A stretch of DNA of 64,000 nt from Escherichia coli (lineage in GTDB: Bacteria > Pseudomonadota > Gammaproteobacteria > Enterobacterales > Enterobacteriaceae). Made by a program: the position numbers and the translations under genes. Location of the stretch: assembly GCF_030384885.1 (NCBI RefSeq), contig NZ_CP128613.1. One strand, 5' to 3'. The notes below the pieces were generated by a model. It was not told where the DNA came from. It did not search any database and saw only the letters and a program-made list of their open reading frames with translations. Each line of letters begins with the position of its first letter. Within the stretch, counting starts at the first letter, position 1. Positions 1 to 20,751 of this stretch are shown here, in pieces.

Positions 1-528
1 TGCTGCTTCAACGGCGGGATATCCTTGCAGCAAGCCGCTGCCGGAGAATGCCCCTATTACCGTACCAAATACCCACGATGACCATGAACTGAAGGCAATG
101 CCGATCATCCAGTTCTCGCTCCAGCGGCGATTATTGCGTACCAGTTTTGCGGTTGCGGCGGCAAAAACCTCATCCGTCAGGCCAAACGCCCACAGGGCAG
201 TTTTCGATTTTTGCAGACGCTGAATAATACGGCTACGCAGTGACGGGCCATACAAAACATGGCGAACATCCATTGCCATGACGGTCAGTGCAGCAACCCA
301 CAAACTACTCCCGGCTGCCAGCATCGCGGTAATGACGAACTGGCTCGCGCCTGCATAAATGATGCAGGAGAAAAAAACGCTTTCGAGAGGAGAGAATCCC
401 AGACGGGTCGCATTCAGACCAAACGCAAAGGCCACCGGAATATAACTAATAACAATCGGTAAACTGTCTTTGCATCCTTCCATGAAGGTCGCCGAACCAG
501 GAGCAGGCTGTGGAGTAGGGCTTTCCAT
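1..528 (-). CDS. ygaZ: AzlC-family exporter subunit YgaZ, N-terminal part (gene runs off the window start)
   Basis: Minus-strand translation from ATG (complement of 526-528) reads MESPTPQPAPGSATFMEGCKDSLPIVISYIPVAFAFG... with no stop before the window edge; sits downstream of ygaY as in E. coli. Confidence 0.7.
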   Translation of the reverse strand, partial: MESPTPQPAPGSATFMEGCKDSLPIVISYIPVAFAFGLNATRLGFSPLESVFFSCIIYAGASQFVITAMLAAGSSLWVAALTVMAMDVRHVLYGPSLRSRIIQRLQKSKTALWAFGLTDEVFAAATAKLVRNNRRWSENWMIGIAFSSWSSWVFGTVIGAFSGSGLLQGYPAVEAA

Positions 529-651
529 AGAGTGTACGCTTAACGATTGTTAATATTATAAATAGACTGAATGAATATCTTAACCTTATCAGACTGATGG
601 GCTTCTTAACACCCTTATAAGTGTAAAGCCACGAAAACGGTTGCTGATTGC

Positions 652-1836
652 TTAAATTGCGGCTTCCTGACGATGAAAACCTCGCCACCAGACCAGTAAG
701 TTAACCAGGGCAATCGTCGCGCCAGCCAGACAAACGCCAGCCCAACCGCCATGTTGCCAGGCTGAGGCTGAAATTAGCGAACCGGCGGCACCGCCAATGA
801 AGTAGCTGGTCATGTAACCTGCGGTCAGGCGATTACGCGCATCAGGGTGTATTCGATAAATTACCGTCTGGTTAGTGATATGCACGCCCTGCACGGTGAG
901 ATCCAGCACCAGGATGCCGATAATCAAGGCCAGTACGGAAGTGTGTCCAAACCAGATAGCCAGCCATGAAAGTAACAGCAGCAGCAGGCCGAAAGTTGTG
1001 GTGAGGTGTGATTTGCCCTTATCGGCAAAACCGCCCGCCGGACGAGCGCCCAACGCTCCGGCAGCTCCCGCGAGTCCAAACAGACCAATTACGCCATCGC
1101 TGTAATTAAAAGGCGGAGCGGCGAGCAAAAAGGCCATTGAGGTCCAGAGAATGCTGAAGTTGGCAAAGGTCAGGCAGCCCAGCAACGCGCGGGTGCGCAG
1201 AATTTTATCGCTGATAAACATGCTGAAAACGGAACCAAGCAACTGTGGGTAGTTGAGGTGGGTTTCTGATTTCATTTGTGGCAGACCACGCCATAATGCC
1301 AGCGCCATCAGTGCCATTAACACCGAGGCAACCCAAAAGACGGTGCGCCAGCCGCCGAGGTTTGCCAGCAACCCGGCAACGGTTCGTGCCAGCAAGATCC
1401 CCAACAGCAGCCCGCTCATAATGGTGCCGACCACTTTGCCGCGTTTGTCCGGTGAAGCCAGCGTCGCTGCCAGCGGAACCAGAATTTGTGCCACGACCGA
1501 GAATAAACCGGTTAATGCCGTACCGAGGATCATCATCGCCAGCGACTGACTGCTGGCGGTAATCAACATACCGCCCGCTGCCAGTAAGGTCATCGAGACA
1601 ATCAGGCGGCGGCGTTCAAACATATCACCGAGGGGAACAAGAAACAGCAGACCTGCGGCATAGCCCAACTGCGCGGCGGTAACAATAAAGCCCGCCGAAC
1701 TGGCGGAAAGGGAAAAGTTACGCGCGATGGTGTCGAGTAATGGCTGGGCGTAATAGTTACTGGCTACCGCCAGACCGGTGGCGATAGACATCAGCACGAT
1801 CAGTGCCGGGCTAAGCTCATGATTAGGTTTAGTCAT
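652..1836 (-). CDS. ygaY: MFS family transporter (394 aa, intact)
   Basis: Long ORF with multiple hydrophobic helices, adjacent to proX; position matches ygaY. Confidence 0.8.
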   Translation of the reverse strand: MTKPNHELSPALIVLMSIATGLAVASNYYAQPLLDTIARNFSLSASSAGFIVTAAQLGYAAGLLFLVPLGDMFERRRLIVSMTLLAAGGMLITASSQSLAMMILGTALTGLFSVVAQILVPLAATLASPDKRGKVVGTIMSGLLLGILLARTVAGLLANLGGWRTVFWVASVLMALMALALWRGLPQMKSETHLNYPQLLGSVFSMFISDKILRTRALLGCLTFANFSILWTSMAFLLAAPPFNYSDGVIGLFGLAGAAGALGARPAGGFADKGKSHLTTTFGLLLLLLSWLAIWFGHTSVLALIIGILVLDLTVQGVHITNQTVIYRIHPDARNRLTAGYMTSYFIGGAAGSLISASAWQHGGWAGVCLAGATIALVNLLVWWRGFHRQEAAI

Positions 1837-2027
1837 TATTTTTGTTCATCAGGTGATGATTAAGCTGGAAATCAATAATAGCGGATGTTGATGAATATGG
1901 GATGAAAGATAGATTGTTGAAATGTGCGGTGTGGTTTGCAGGCATGATAAGACGCGGCCGCGTCGCATCAGGCATTGTGTACAGAGCGGCGGATGAGGCA
2001 AAAGCGCCTTATCCGCCCGAATAAAAA

Positions 2028-3020
2028 TTACTTCTGCGCTGCCAGCGCCTCATTCACCCAGCCATCGAACTGCTGCTGGTGGGCTTTGATCCAGCCATCA
2101 ACGTGGCCCTGGATATCGCCTTCTGAGGCTTTGCCGTCATGCATGATGGCGTTCTGGGCGTTAATGTCTGCCACCGGCAACTGCATAATGGCAAATAGTT
2201 TGGCTGCCGCCGGGTTTTTCTCGGCCCAGGCTTTGTTGGCAACGATATGCATGGTGCTGACCGGGAAGCCATAATTCGCACCATTCGGCAGTTTAGTGTC
2301 GGCGTTTTTATCGCCCGGCAGTGCGGAGAACGGCACCTGCAACCAGACGACATCTTTGCCCGGCTTCAGTTCGTTACTCACCCAGTACGGCGTCCAGGTG
2401 TAGTAAAACACCGGCTTACCCTCTTTGTAACGACTGATGGTGTCAGCCATCATCGCTGCGTAGTTCCCCTGATTATGCGTCACGGTATTGGTCAGTTCAT
2501 ACGCTGCAAGCTGGTGGTTGATCGCACCTTCGCAGCCCCAGCCTGGGTTACAGCCAGTCAAATCTGCTTTACCGTCGCCGTTGGTATCGAACAGTTTGGC
2601 GATCTTCGGATCTTTCAGTTGCGCGATGTTGGTGATTTTGTACTGGTCGGCGGTTTTCTTATCGATCAGGTAACCCTGTGCCGCGCCGTTAACGAATACC
2701 CCTTCACGATAAAATTTCTTATCGCCACCGGCAGCTTCGTACATGTTGTCATGCAGCGGCGTCCAGTTCACGGCGGTGAAGGTTGCATCGCCGGAAGCAA
2801 GTGAGGTGTAGCCAACGTTGTAATCCACTTCGCTGGGTTTATTGACGGTATAACCTAATTTCTCCAGCGCGCGGCTGACCAGCAGCGTCTGGAAAGTTTC
2901 TTCGGTGATGGTGCTCTGAACCGGATTAACAGTAATGCCTTTGCCCGGCAGGTCGGCAGCAAAAGTTTGTGTAGAGATAAGCGTGGCAAACGCTGTCGCA
3001 AAAAGTACGCTATGTCGCAT
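2028..3020 (-). CDS. proX: Glycine betaine/proline ABC transporter periplasmic binding protein ProX
   Basis: Protein from [31 protein letters not shown]... recognisable as ProX with signal peptide; start placed at ATG 3020 rather than the longer ORF-track extension. Confidence 0.9.
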
Positions 3021-3077
3021 TGTTATTCCTTTTTTTGGCAGGGTGATAATGCCCGGCGTCACCGGGCAAGTGCAGAG

Positions 3078-4142
3078 TTACTTAATGAATGGGCGGGTCA
3101 GCAGACCGACAGGGCCAGTGGTGTACCAGCGACGGTTGCCGCGACTGCGTGAGTCGCGCCCAACGGCCTGCGTCAGGCGGTCGAGGATAATGGCGAGGAT
3201 CACAATCCCGACGCCGCCAACGGTGGCAAGGCCCATATCCAGACGACCGATACCGCGTAGTACCATCTGACCCAGCCCGCCGACGGCAATCATCGAGGCG
3301 ATGACCACCATAGAAAGGGCCAGCATCAGCGTCTGGTTAACGCCCGCCATTATGGTCGGCATCGCCAGCGGTAACTGAACTTTGAACAGCATTTGACGCG
3401 GGCTGGCACCGAATGAGCGCGAGGCTTCAATTAAATCCGCCGGAACCTGATTAATACCAAGAATCGTCAGACGGATAATCGGCGGCAGAGCAAAGATTAT
3501 AGTCACCACTACGCCCGGCACGTTGCCGATACCAAACAGCATGACGATTGGCACCAGATAAACAAACGCTGGCGTGGTCTGCATGGCATCAAGCAGTGGA
3601 CGAATAATTTTCGCCGCTCGCGGACTTCTCGCGAGCCAGATCCCCAACGGCAAACCTATGACGATACAGAACAGCAGGGCGGTTAACACCAGCGCCAGGG
3701 TAACCATGGCCTGCGACCAGGCACCGATTGCGCCGATGGCAATCAGCGAAACCAGCGTCGCCACGCCCATTCCGACCCCGGAAATCTGCCAGGCGATGAG
3801 AGCGAAAACGATAATCGCCACCGGCGCGGGCATACCCAGCAGCAATTGCTGGAAACCGTTGAGGATGTAATCGACCGGAACGCGCACGCCCTGAAAGACG
3901 GGACGAAAATGGGTAACGACCCAGTCGATCCCTTCAGTGACCCAACTGTCGAGCGGGATCAGCGTTTTATGGAACGGATCGAGAATATTAAAATGTTCGA
4001 CATTTGGCGCAGGCGTACTGGTCAGCCAGTCAGCGCCACCGCCGTCAGTCGGTGCAGTCGCCGGTGTACCCCAGGCGTCTGCGGATTGTGCAGCACTGTC
4101 CGCCGCTGGCGTGGTATCCCACGGATTATTTTGATCAGCCAT
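3078..4142 (-). CDS. proW: Glycine betaine/proline ABC transporter permease ProW
   Basis: 354-aa membrane protein with ABC permease signature, between proV and proX. Confidence 0.9.
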
Positions 4143-5337
4143 TATTTACCCCCTCACGATCTAAAGCGCGCAGCAGCATTCCTTTCGAAATGATGCCGAC
4201 ATACTGTTGGTCCTCGTCGACCACGGGCACCGCACAGGGCGCTTGTCCGACATGAGAGAGCAACTCGCTAAGAGGCGTTTGCGCATCGACTGCTAATGGT
4301 GCATCAATCAGCGCCGCATCAAGACCTTGCTGCTGCGTTAACGCGGTTTTAAGCGAATCGATAGACACAGCGCCGACAAACTTATTACCGCGTTCGATAA
4401 CGTAGCCATATTCGCGGTCTTCATCCTGCAATAATTTCAATGCCGAACGTGGGCCGAAGCCAGGGGTTTTACGAATTAAGCCATTCGGTGTCCGACGGGC
4501 AATATCTTTCGCACTGAATACCTGACTAATATCAACGCCACGGAAGAAGGTACGGACATAATCATTCGCCGGATTATTGAGAATTTCATCCGGTGTGCCA
4601 ACCTGCACCACTTCACCATTTTGCATAATGGCAATTCGGTCGCCAATACGCATAGCTTCGTCGAGATCGTGAGAAATAAAGACAATGGTACGTTGATGTT
4701 TCGCCTGTAATTTTACCAGCTCATCCTGCATCTCAGTGCGAATTAATGGATCAAGCGCCGAGAAGGCTTCGTCCATTAATAATATATCCGGATTAATTGC
4801 TAATGCGCGTGCTAATCCGACGCGTTGACGCATCCCACCAGAGAGCTCGTCCGGGTAGCTATGGGCATAATTTTCCAGCCCGACCTGACGCAGTGCATCA
4901 AGGGCTTTTTCCCGACGTTCTTCGGCATTAATTCCGGCCAATTCCATACCGAATGCAGTATTGTCCAGCACGGTCATATGCGGCATTAAGGCAAAGGACT
5001 GGAAGACCATCGCAATCTTTTTTCTGCGCACCTCACGGAGTTCGGCGTCGGATATTTTGGCAATATCCACACCATCAATCAGCACTTGCCCGCGGGTGGG
5101 TTCAATCAGGCGATTGAGAAGGCGTACCATTGTGGATTTACCCGAACCGGATAATCCCATGATGACAAATATCTCGCCTTCTTCAATGGCCAGACTGGCG
5201 TCTTTTACGCCAAGCGATAGCCCGGTTTTTTCCAGAATTTGTTCTTTTGAAAGTCCTTGTTCGATATATTTGAACGCTCGCTGAGGATGCTCGCCAAATA
5301 TTTTATAGAGATTTTTAATTTCTAATTTAATTGCCAT
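4135..5337 (-). CDS. proV: Glycine betaine/proline ABC transporter ATPase ProV
   Basis: Walker [13 protein letters not shown] signature [16 protein letters not shown]-terminal CBS region; 400 aa. Confidence 0.92.
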
Positions 5338-5692
5338 GCAATAGAAAGATTCCTGTTATTTGTTTATGTCGATACATTACCCAATGGAAATAGTCACTTT
5401 TTTCTACCCTAACATACTGAGAATCTGAGGCAACCCCTGATGGTAAATGTGGCATGAATATTGATGCGAGCAAATCGCCGGAATTTCCCGTGATATAAGG
5501 GCTGAGAGCGAATCGAGAAAAGTTGATATTTTTTGTCATAGATAGCGAAAAAACGCCTGAATATTGTGGTTTCAGGCGAATAATGCAACAGAGTATCAGT
5601 GTAGATCACCACAAAATATTTGCGTGATAAAAAGCTATTTGGCAGGAATTATTTCCCTACTGTGGTTGGTGATATTTTTGAAAATAACACAC
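5338..5692 (-). promoter_or_regulatory. proU (proVWX) upstream promoter region
   Basis: AT-rich intergenic region upstream of proV; osmoregulated proU promoters are known to lie here; individual -10/-35 elements not resolved by eye. Confidence 0.35.
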
Positions 5693-6661
<969 letters not shown>

Positions 6662-18008: not shown

Positions 18009-19289
18009 CTACTGCTTAGCCTCATCAAAACACTGGCTGATGATCTCCAGACCCTGACGGATCTGAGCGTCTTCAATGGTGAGCGGTACAAGGATGCGCA
18101 GCACGTTGTAATACGGGCCGCAGGAGAGAAGAATCAGGCCTTTATCGCGGGCGCGAGCCACGATCTCGGCGGTGAGTTTTGCGTCCGGTTTACTGTGATC
18201 GCCACCTTCAAACAGCTCTATAGCGATCATCGCCCCCAGCCCGCGAACGTCGCCGATCTCGGTGTGTTTTTCGGCGATCGCCAGCAATCCGTCTTTCAGC
18301 TTTTGCCCCAAATCGTTGGCTTTTTGCAGCAGATTTTCCTGCTCGAATACCTTCAACACTTCCAGCGCTGCCACGCAGGCAATCGGGTTACCCGCATAGG
18401 TACCGCCCAGACCGCCTGGAGCGACGGTATCCATCACTTCGGTGCGCCCGGTGACGCCCGCCAGCGGGAAACCGCCTGCGATCGATTTCGCAAAGGTGGT
18501 GAGATCCGGCGCGACGCCCATTTGCTCCATCGCAAACAGTGTGCCGGTACGCCCCGCGCCGCTTTGCACTTCATCGGCAATCAACATGATCCCGTGCTCG
18601 TCACACAGCGCGCGTAAACGCTGCATAAATGCAGGTGTCGCGGCGTAGAAACCGCCTTCACCCTGAACCGGCTCAATCACGATGGCGGCGATATCTTCCG
18701 GCGCAGCGTCATTTTTGAAGATCCGATGAATACTGGCGATAGCGTCATCTTCACTGATGCCGTGCAGCGGGCAAGGATAAAGCGCGCGATAAACATGGCC
18801 CGGCATCAGGCCCATGCCAGCAGAGTACGGGTTCACCTTACCAGTCAGCGCCAGCGTGTAGTGCGTGCGCCCGTGATACGCGCCGCTAAAGGCGATGGTA
18901 CCGCTACGTTTGGTGGCGGCGCGGGCGATTTTCACCGCGTTTTCCACCGCTTCGGAGCCCGTGGTGACCAGCAGCGTTTTTTTGGCGAAATCGCCTGGCA
19001 CCTTCTGATTCATAATCTCGCACAGCGCCAGATACGGCTCGTAGGCCAGCACCTGGAAGCAAGTGTGCGACAGCTTTTTCAACTGCGCTTCCACAGCCGC
19101 CACCACTTTCGGATGCAGGTGCCCGGTATTGAGCACCGCAATCCCGCCCGCGAAATCAAGATACTCACGGCCTTCAACGTCCCACACCCGGCAGTTTTCT
19201 GCGCGATCAGCGAAAATCGGGTGAATTTGCCCAACGCCACGGGGAATCGCCTGACTGCGGCGTTGCATTAACTCTTTATTGCTGCTCAT
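18009..19289 (-). CDS. gabT: 4-aminobutyrate aminotransferase GabT
   Basis: 426-aa class III PLP aminotransferase. Confidence 0.92.
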   Translation of the reverse strand: MSSNKELMQRRSQAIPRGVGQIHPIFADRAENCRVWDVEGREYLDFAGGIAVLNTGHLHPKVVAAVEAQLKKLSHTCFQVLAYEPYLALCEIMNQKVPGDFAKKTLLVTTGSEAVENAVKIARAATKRSGTIAFSGAYHGRTHYTLALTGKVNPYSAGMGLMPGHVYRALYPCPLHGISEDDAIASIHRIFKNDAAPEDIAAIVIEPVQGEGGFYAATPAFMQRLRALCDEHGIMLIADEVQSGAGRTGTLFAMEQMGVAPDLTTFAKSIAGGFPLAGVTGRTEVMDTVAPGGLGGTYAGNPIACVAALEVLKVFEQENLLQKANDLGQKLKDGLLAIAEKHTEIGDVRGLGAMIAIELFEGGDHSKPDAKLTAEIVARARDKGLILLSCGPYYNVLRILVPLTIEDAQIRQGLEIISQCFDEAKQ

Positions 19290-19302
19290 TCGCGTTCTCC
19301 AG

Positions 19303-20751
19303 TTAAAGACCGATGCACATGTATTTGATTTCTAAATAATCTTCGATGCCATACTTCGAACCTTCACGACCCAGCCCCGAGGCTTTTATGCCGCCGAACG
19401 GGGCCACTTCATTGGAAATAATGCCGGTATTGATGCCGACGATGCCGTACTCCAGCGCCTCGCCCACGCGGAAGACGCGGCTTAAATCACGGGCGTAGAA
19501 ATAGGCGGCAAGACCAAACTCGGTGTCATTGGCCTGCGCAATCACATCGGCTTCATCTTTAAAGCGGAACAGCGGGGCGAGGGGGCCGAACGTCTCTTCT
19601 TTCGACACTTTGGCGTTGGCAGGAACATCCACCAGAATGGTTGGCTGGAAGAAGTTGCCGCCGCGTTCATGCGCTTTACCGCCGCAAACCACGCGCGCGC
19701 CTTTCTCCAGCGCATCGGCGATATGCTCTTCCACTTTTGCTACCGCTTTTTCATCGATCAGTGGCCCAATGGTGACGCCTTTTTCCAGCCCATCACCGAT
19801 GTACAGTTTGCTCACCGCCTGCTGCAATTTTTCAGCAAAGCGGTCATACACGCCGTCCTGTACATACAGGCGGTTGGCGCAGACGCAGGTTTGCCCGGCG
19901 TTACGGAATTTCGAGGCCAGCGCACCTTCCACGGCTTTATCGAGATCGGCATCGTCAAAGACGATAAACGGCGCGTTGCCGCCCAGCTCCAGCGACACTT
20001 TTTTGATGTCTTTCGCGCACTGTTCCATTAACTGGCGACCAATTTCGGTCGAGCCGGTAAACGACAGCTTGCGCACCAGCGGGTTGCTGGTCAGTTCGTT
20101 ACCGACCGCGCCCGCCGAACCGGTCACCACGTTAAATACGCCAGCCGGAATGCCCGCGCGAATCGCCAGCTCTGCCAGCGCCAGCGCAGAGAACGGCGTC
20201 TGACTGGCGGGCTTCAGCACCATCGTGCAGCCTGCCGCCAGCGCCGGACCGGCTTTACGGGTAATCATCGCCGCCGGGAAGTTCCACGGCGTGATAGCGG
20301 CGGTAACACCAATCGGCTGCTTGATGACAATCAGGCGCTTATCGGCCTGATGACCGGGAATGGTGTCGCCATAAATGCGTTTGCCTTCTTCGGCAAACCA
20401 CTCAATAAATGAGGCGGCGTAGCTGATTTCGCCTTTCGCTTCCGCCAGCGGTTTGCCCTGTTCGAGGGTCATCAGGCGCGCTAAATCGTCCTGATGCTCC
20501 ATCATCAAATTGAACCAGTTACGCAGAATGTTGGCGCGTTCTTTGGCGGTAAGGGCACGCCAGGCGGGCAGGGCGCGGTTGGCGGCGTCGATAGCGGCGC
20601 GGGTTTCATCTGCGCCCATTTTGGGTACGCTACCCAGCTTGTCGCCATTCGCCGGATTGGTGACCTCGATGACTTCGCCATTGTTGGCGTCCAGCCATTC
20701 CCCGTTAATTAACGCCTGCTGGCGGAATAAGTTACTGTCGTTCAGTTTCAT
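19303..20751 (-). CDS. gabD: Succinate-semialdehyde dehydrogenase (NADP+) GabD
   Basis: 482-aa aldehyde dehydrogenase with catalytic Cys region (GQTCVCANR) and ELGGNAP motif. Confidence 0.92.
   Translation of the reverse strand: MKLNDSNLFRQQALINGEWLDANNGEVIEVTNPANGDKLGSVPKMGADETRAAIDAANRALPAWRALTAKERANILRNWFNLMMEHQDDLARLMTLEQGKPLAEAKGEISYAASFIEWFAEEGKRIYGDTIPGHQADKRLIVIKQPIGVTAAITPWNFPAAMITRKAGPALAAGCTMVLKPASQTPFSALALAELAIRAGIPAGVFNVVTGSAGAVGNELTSNPLVRKLSFTGSTEIGRQLMEQCAKDIKKVSLELGGNAPFIVFDDADLDKAVEGALASKFRNAGQTCVCANRLYVQDGVYDRFAEKLQQAVSKLYIGDGLEKGVTIGPLIDEKAVAKVEEHIADALEKGARVVCGGKAHERGGNFFQPTILVDVPANAKVSKEETFGPLAPLFRFKDEADVIAQANDTEFGLAAYFYARDLSRVFRVGEALEYGIVGINTGIISNEVAPFGGIKASGLGREGSKYGIEDYLEIKYMCIGL

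Follow-up and report, generated by a model that had tools for sequence, protein, structure and literature searches.

The DNA analysed here, a window of 64,000 nucleotides from Escherichia coli (assembly GCF_030384885.1, contig NZ_CP128613.1), contains one long open reading frame at positions 652..1836 on the minus strand, which begins with ATG and encodes 394 amino acids followed by a stop codon, with no internal stop. According to the ORF listing, the remaining frames overlapping this interval were only 50-98 aa long and were either antisense or out of frame. Pfam analysis of the product detected MFS_1 (PF07690) in two stretches (138.5 bits against a cut-off of 33.4, E-value 3.3e-40) and MFS_4 (PF06779; 31.4 against 26.3). 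The first-pass annotation had described a continuous 394-aa MFS frame at exactly these positions without giving its strand, and this description was confirmed. The gene, ygaY, lies between proX and ygaZ. Upstream of it is proX (2028..3020, minus strand), the last gene of proVWX, which encodes the binding protein of the glycine betaine/proline ABC transporter and whose product (WP_001216525.1) is identical to the K-12 protein; downstream is the 5' part of ygaZ (1..528, minus strand), encoding a subunit of the L-valine exporter and cut by the window edge. These assignments agree with the annotation of E. coli 2013C-4282 (NZ_CP027579.1), isolated from human stool in the USA, which was 100% identical to the window over 1,701 bp. 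There, an 'MFS transporter' (WP_000165707.1) is annotated at the matching coordinates, with proV-proW-proX before it and ygaZ-ygaH-emrR after it on the same strand. Besides the ORF, Pfam and strain-annotation evidence, hydropathy and an alignment with YnfM (see below) also support 652..1836 as an intact ygaY coding sequence.

Both spacers flanking ygaY were also examined. The 123-bp ygaY-ygaZ spacer contains the promoter of the ygaZH operon (TTAAGA-17-TATAAT, 555..583, minus strand; 10 of 12 consensus matches in our scan), and the same hexamers have been reported as a constitutive RpoD promoter for ygaZH (PMC3946193; Shimada et al., 2014). Thus, with a promoter of its own, ygaZH is independent of ygaY transcription. 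The 191-bp proX-ygaY spacer (1837..2027, minus strand) contains two REP-like palindromes (1942-1973 and 1988-2017), and the promoter/terminator scan of its minus strand found neither a sigma-70 consensus nor a T-run terminator. The same scan yielded no candidate ygaY promoter, and apart from the ygaZH promoter it returned only intragenic chance matches; no Rfam family was matched within window positions 1-6000. In K-12, the proX-ygaY spacer has yielded an Hfq-binding RNA aptamer named 'ig-proX/ygaX' (PMC2887942). Its length varies in E. coli, with approximately 100 extra bp in BL21-like strains and approximately 261 extra bp in others, and database matches split at this point. Farther along the window, positions 26188-50000 form a mosaic island downstream of a tRNA-Ile gene (26188-26263), which includes a ypjC-like gene with a frameshift, recombinase and ATPase fragments, a ypjA/EhaD autotransporter, two adjoining toxin genes of the CbtA family together with a YeeU antitoxin, remnants of IS66, and, beside a DEAD/DEAH helicase, a SAM-dependent DNA methyltransferase.

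The window was collinear with K-12 across 3,600 bp at 96.75% identity. Within the gene, identity to K-12 b2681 was approximately 96.5% outside a single 7-bp gap (41 substitutions in 1,178 aligned bases), and GC content (0.5-0.6) was typical of the E. coli core. On the basis of shared position and near-identical DNA, the gene at 652..1836 can be identified as the ygaY orthologue (b2681).

In contrast to the window, K-12 carries a broken frame. In MG1655 (NC_000913.3) the interval between proX and ygaZ is annotated as 'pseudogene ygaY b2681' (2808316..2809493, 1,178 bp), and in a second K-12 record PGAP labels the gene 'MFS transporter, frameshifted', in agreement with the statement of the first-pass annotation that ygaY is annotated as a pseudogene in K-12. 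The MAFFT alignment of the window gene with K-12 ygaY located the lesion: besides the 41 substitutions, K-12 lacks 7 bp aligned to gene nucleotides 255-261 (window 1576-1582), within a short tract that covers codons 85-90 in the third transmembrane helix (1568..1582, minus strand; gene nucleotides approximately 256-269). The K-12 frame then terminates at ...MTLLAAC* after 88 residues. Since the remainder could be read free of stops in the +2 frame, the loss of 7 bp is the sole lesion. Codon 88 falls inside the third hydrophobic segment of YgaY, and the K-12 product should therefore contain at most two and a half of twelve helices, with 10 of them lost. When the 7 bp were put back, the repaired K-12 gene differed from the window gene by 39 synonymous and only 2 non-synonymous changes (L278H and I394N), corresponding to a dS of 0.14, a dN of 0.002 and a dN/dS of 0.017.

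The origin of this lesion could be traced by comparison with EJN001, a urine isolate with an intact 1,185-bp gene (WP_000165680.1), whose 80 bp around the site are the same as those of K-12 except for the indel, and whose ygaY differs from that of K-12 beyond the 7-bp loss by one SNP (nt 516). This intact allele, the nearest to that of K-12, reads CTG GCGGCAT GCGGCAT GTTG at the site, a perfect 7-mer tandem, whereas K-12 reads CTG GCGGCAT GTTG. Judging from this alignment, K-12 has lost one unit from a tandem repeat of 2 x 7 bp, for which we infer replication slippage as the cause. The window tract at 1568..1582 reads GCAGCGG GCGGTAT and contains no repeat. Residue 88 is Gly in the window, O157, E2348/69, BL21(DE3), QDFD216 and Citrobacter, and Cys in EJN001 and in K-12. 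From this pattern, the tandem repeat is itself a derived state, having arisen only within K-12's own sublineage through Gly88Cys together with synonymous changes.

To place these alleles in the species, complete E. coli genomes were searched for the K-12 junction and for the repeat. An 80-mer spanning the K-12 junction was found exactly in 354 of 5,405 genomes, with none at 95-99% identity, while the other 5,051 aligned with 7 extra bases at the junction. The best 60 of the 354 junction carriers were all laboratory derivatives of K-12, including MG1655, DH5alpha, DH1, C600, J53, HMS174, NCM3722 and RR1. The exact repeat-bearing 87-mer (GCGGCAT x2) occurred in 679 genomes. In an even sample of 60 whole-gene matches, 55 copies were 1,185 bp long, 4 were 1,178 bp long and one was truncated; the four shorter copies came from O16:H48 or laboratory strains of K-12 type. 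In addition, ygaY is annotated as intact in O157, E2348/69, BL21(DE3), QDFD216 and EJN001, where its translations are free of stops, and these five intact alleles shared 98-99% protein identity with YgaY of the window. Intact ygaY is the species norm, and the K-12 laboratory lineage is the exception. The suggestion in the first-pass annotation of a strain-level functional difference thus holds in that the window gene is intact and the K-12 gene broken, but the intact form is not a peculiarity of the window strain.

Natural losses of ygaY outside the K-12 lineage were also observed. First, S115 (NZ_CP158441.1, locus 2288-3453) carries a separate 19-bp deletion of ygaY nucleotides 252-270 (equivalent to window positions approximately 1567-1585), which lies in the same GC-rich tract as the K-12 deletion and truncates the protein at residue 84; this tract may be a small local hot-spot of deletion. 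Second, in PCP06021, a seawater strain from the Galapagos (locus 3001-3463), a natural deletion running from about ygaY nt 159 into ygaH leaves some 158 bp from the start of ygaY fused to ygaH; most of ygaY, the whole of ygaZ and the start of ygaH are removed, so that the strain has neither YgaY nor the YgaZH valine exporter. The window allele itself is uncommon: only 6 genomes were at least 99% identical, and most were 96-97.6% identical. Elsewhere in the window, gabT-gabD (18009-20751) was unusually divergent for core genes, its best match besides the source strain reaching 97.3% among 5,397 complete E. coli genomes and 3,684 of these being only 90-95% identical, which points to a rare lineage or else to a gab haplotype that diverged long ago.

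With regard to the protein, a hydropathy scan of YgaY revealed 11 strong hydrophobic segments plus an amphipathic, less hydrophobic one (helix 11, residues ~337-358), a central loop of 42 residues, and a concentration of K/R in alternate loops. Residues 13-383 aligned with residues 42-406 of SotB (6kki), a 12-helix MFS exporter of solved structure. YgaY is accordingly predicted to be a 12-helix MFS protein composed of two six-helix halves, whose connecting loop and two termini would lie on the cytoplasmic side. Strict regular expressions for MFS motifs A and C had no match in YgaY. When the loop sequences were inspected by eye for motif A (G-x-x-x-D-R/K-x-G-R-R/K), which is typical of the loop joining helices 2 and 3 and often recurs between helices 8 and 9, the loop between helices 2 and 3 (residues 68-77) was found to read PLGDMFERRR, with D71, R75 and R76 and with Glu replacing the second Gly, and the loop between helices 8 and 9 (residues 265-277) to read RPAGGFADKGKSH, which includes GGFADKGKSH. 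YgaY therefore appears to carry a degenerate form of MFS motif A. The antiporter motif C (G-x8-G-x3-G-P-x2-G-G), a feature of helix 5 in drug:H+ antiporters, was absent, and no 'GP' dipeptide occurs in the whole protein.

The family of YgaY was then considered. NCBIfam returned 24 weak matches, all far below their curated cut-offs, among them PRK03545 (YgaY 11-390 against 13-387 of 396), Bcr/CflA (50.0 vs 303 and 48.1 vs 200.9), EmrD (38.1 vs 479) and Cmx/CmrA (51.7 vs 400), so that no subfamily name could be assigned on this basis. A DHA1/DHA2 drug:H+ antiporter of the Bcr/CflA, EmrD or MdfA kind was considered as a candidate and rejected, since motif C is absent and the models score below cut-off. 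On the other hand, a published transporter table lists YgaY (P76628) as TC 2.A.1.36.3, an entry of unknown function in the YnfM family (PMC5417439), and BLASTP aligned YgaY with K-12 YnfM end to end (26% identity over approximately 409 columns, E-value 7e-21). As TCDB families are defined by homology, YgaY can be placed, at the level of sequence, in the YnfM family (TC 2.A.1.36).

Close homologues of 394 aa were present across E. coli, Shigella, E. fergusonii, E. albertii and E. marmotae, and those of Citrobacter were 93-94% identical; every one of them is named just 'MFS transporter'. The gene order nrdEF-proVWX-ygaY-ygaZH-mprA-emrAB is identical in Citrobacter. Between the window gene and that of Citrobacter, dS was about 1.0 and dN/dS was 0.04-0.05, and such a low ratio at this divergence indicates long-standing strong selection on the YgaY protein. 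The top-scoring database match, P0001, is a 596-aa protein from an ENA metagenome contig of 5.4 kb that covers 99% of the query at 73% identity to YgaY. It exceeds every other homologue in length by one half, probably owing to a fusion or to an error in gene calling. Chance falls far short of explaining an open frame of 1,185 bp whose dN/dS relative to other alleles is 0.02-0.05.

We therefore consider it very probable that ygaY encodes a functional MFS transporter. The explanation as a whole, in which we have high confidence, is that 652..1836 is the intact, ancestral and functional ygaY, a core MFS secondary transporter of the Enterobacteriaceae belonging to the YnfM family. Its open frame, purifying selection and the gene order in common with Citrobacter are observed directly, and the K-12 laboratory lineage alone has lost one GCGGCAT copy, with truncation after residue 88 in helix 3. 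Its transcription is probably at a low level and derives in part from proVWX read-through under osmotic stress, and expression of intact ygaY by read-through in wild strains is plausible.

A quite unlikely alternative is that ygaY, although open in wild strains, is cryptic or silent there, being bound by H-NS, promoterless and decaying, so that the K-12 frameshift was phenotypically neutral. The 191-bp upstream spacer without a sigma-70-like site agrees with this idea, and so do the occasional separate losses in S115 (19 bp) and PCP06021 (larger). In the K-12 literature, the silencer H-NS was bound at ygaY in some data sets, and an H-NS-mediated contact joins ygaY with the downstream regulatory element of the proVWX promoter region. 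Furthermore, K-12 grows normally without ygaY, and the locus has served as a neutral integration site. However, dN/dS values of 0.02-0.05, both within E. coli and relative to Citrobacter, could not be sustained without selection at the protein level. The 98-99% protein identity of five diverse intact alleles and an intact frame in about 92% of the even genome sample also argue against decay. Moreover, ygaY transcripts are detectable in K-12; salt shock was reported to raise them to a moderate degree, with a stronger effect in an stpA mutant, and the authors attributed this to proVWX read-through.

A variant of our preferred explanation, to which we give very little weight, is that intact YgaY works in the response to osmotic stress. 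Read-through from proVWX across the proX-ygaY spacer, which has REP palindromes and no canonical terminator, would then bring about its co-expression, and YgaY would move a compatible solute or a related metabolite. If this were true, one component would be missing from K-12, although osmoregulation was worked out in that strain. In another and weaker variant, the 2 x 7-bp repeat allele found in 679 genomes could act as a slippage-prone on/off site.

Two other explanations are extremely improbable. A sequencing or assembly artefact in either sequence could be imagined in that sequencing often errs by gaining or losing a few bases within GC-rich repeats, a point that has no further support here, but the population counts refute it: 354 genomes, each sequenced independently, share an identical one-copy form, the 7 bases are present in about 5,051, and the window agrees base for base with an independent complete genome. 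Replacement of ygaY by another MFS paralogue or by a horizontally acquired gene, for which only the unusual window allele (6 genomes at 99% identity or more, most at 96-97.6%) could speak, was ruled out by synteny and near-identity, as K-12 and the window align collinearly for 3,600 bp (96.75%), the flanking genes and spacers are unchanged, 39 differences are synonymous and 2 non-synonymous, GC content is that of ordinary core genes, and the gabDT region lies still further from most E. coli, which ties the divergence to the lineage and not to ygaY.

Returning to ygaY as a functional transporter, we can only tentatively suggest, by analogy, what it does. YgaY would cycle by the alternating access of MFS proteins with the proton gradient as driver and, by analogy with YnfM and with the weak matches to sugar and drug efflux proteins, would export a small organic metabolite. 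At best, we regard such a proton-coupled carrier, for which export of a small organic metabolite is likelier than import, as possible but doubtful. YnfM of E. coli was reported to be a proton-dependent glutarate exporter (PMC12622518), whereas its Salmonella orthologue CuiT was reported as a copper importer (PMC13101709), and thus the family leaves the direction of transport unfixed. Our literature search found no functional study of intact YgaY.

The pseudogene status of K-12 ygaY is already contained in the reference annotation and in published papers, and our results add nothing new in kind. In published work its deletion has served as a control ('two pseudogenes, agaA or ygaY') and its locus as a neutral integration site, and one description calls the gene 'cryptic' and counts nine stops in frame. 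Thousands of genomes carry an annotation of the intact form. The sole additions made here are the tandem-repeat account of the lesion and its confinement to K-12 derivatives among the genomes listed. The case illustrates the incompleteness of K-12 as a reference for E. coli and has little wider weight. Nevertheless, a strongly conserved, uncharacterised transporter located beside the well-studied proVWX is missing from K-12, and because ygaY is broken there, the Keio collection, K-12 phenotype screens and K-12 transport inventories are silent on YgaY. Assignment of its function needs a non-K-12 background, such as BL21, in which the gene is intact, or a repaired K-12 allele.

Finally, YgaY can be compared with known systems. 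The SotB/YdeA sugar efflux proteins (6kki, PRK03545) and the Bcr/CflA and Cmx pumps show weak full-length similarity to YgaY and the same 12-helix architecture, but their scores (e.g. 63 bits vs 401 and 50 vs 303) do not make YgaY a member of these groups. YnfM (TC 2.A.1.36.1) has the conserved motif in its loop between helices 2 and 3 (PLSDAIGRK, compared with PLGDMFERRR in YgaY) and has additionally been implicated in arabinose and anthocyanin efflux in E. coli; it is a distant paralogue at a different locus, and 26% identity does not permit transfer of its substrates to YgaY. K-12 ygaY (b2681, formerly ygaX/ygaY; UniProt P76628) has the same locus, and the same strand relative to its neighbours, as the window copy, from which it differs by the absence of 7 bp in codons 86-88, the window frame being uninterrupted. 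Compared with the H278 and N394 of most E. coli, YgaY of the window carries L278 and I394, with no functional difference implied. The intact alleles found elsewhere (e.g. WP_000165680.1, WP_000165714.1 and WP_000165699.1) are likewise 394 aa long and have the same neighbours as ygaY in the window.
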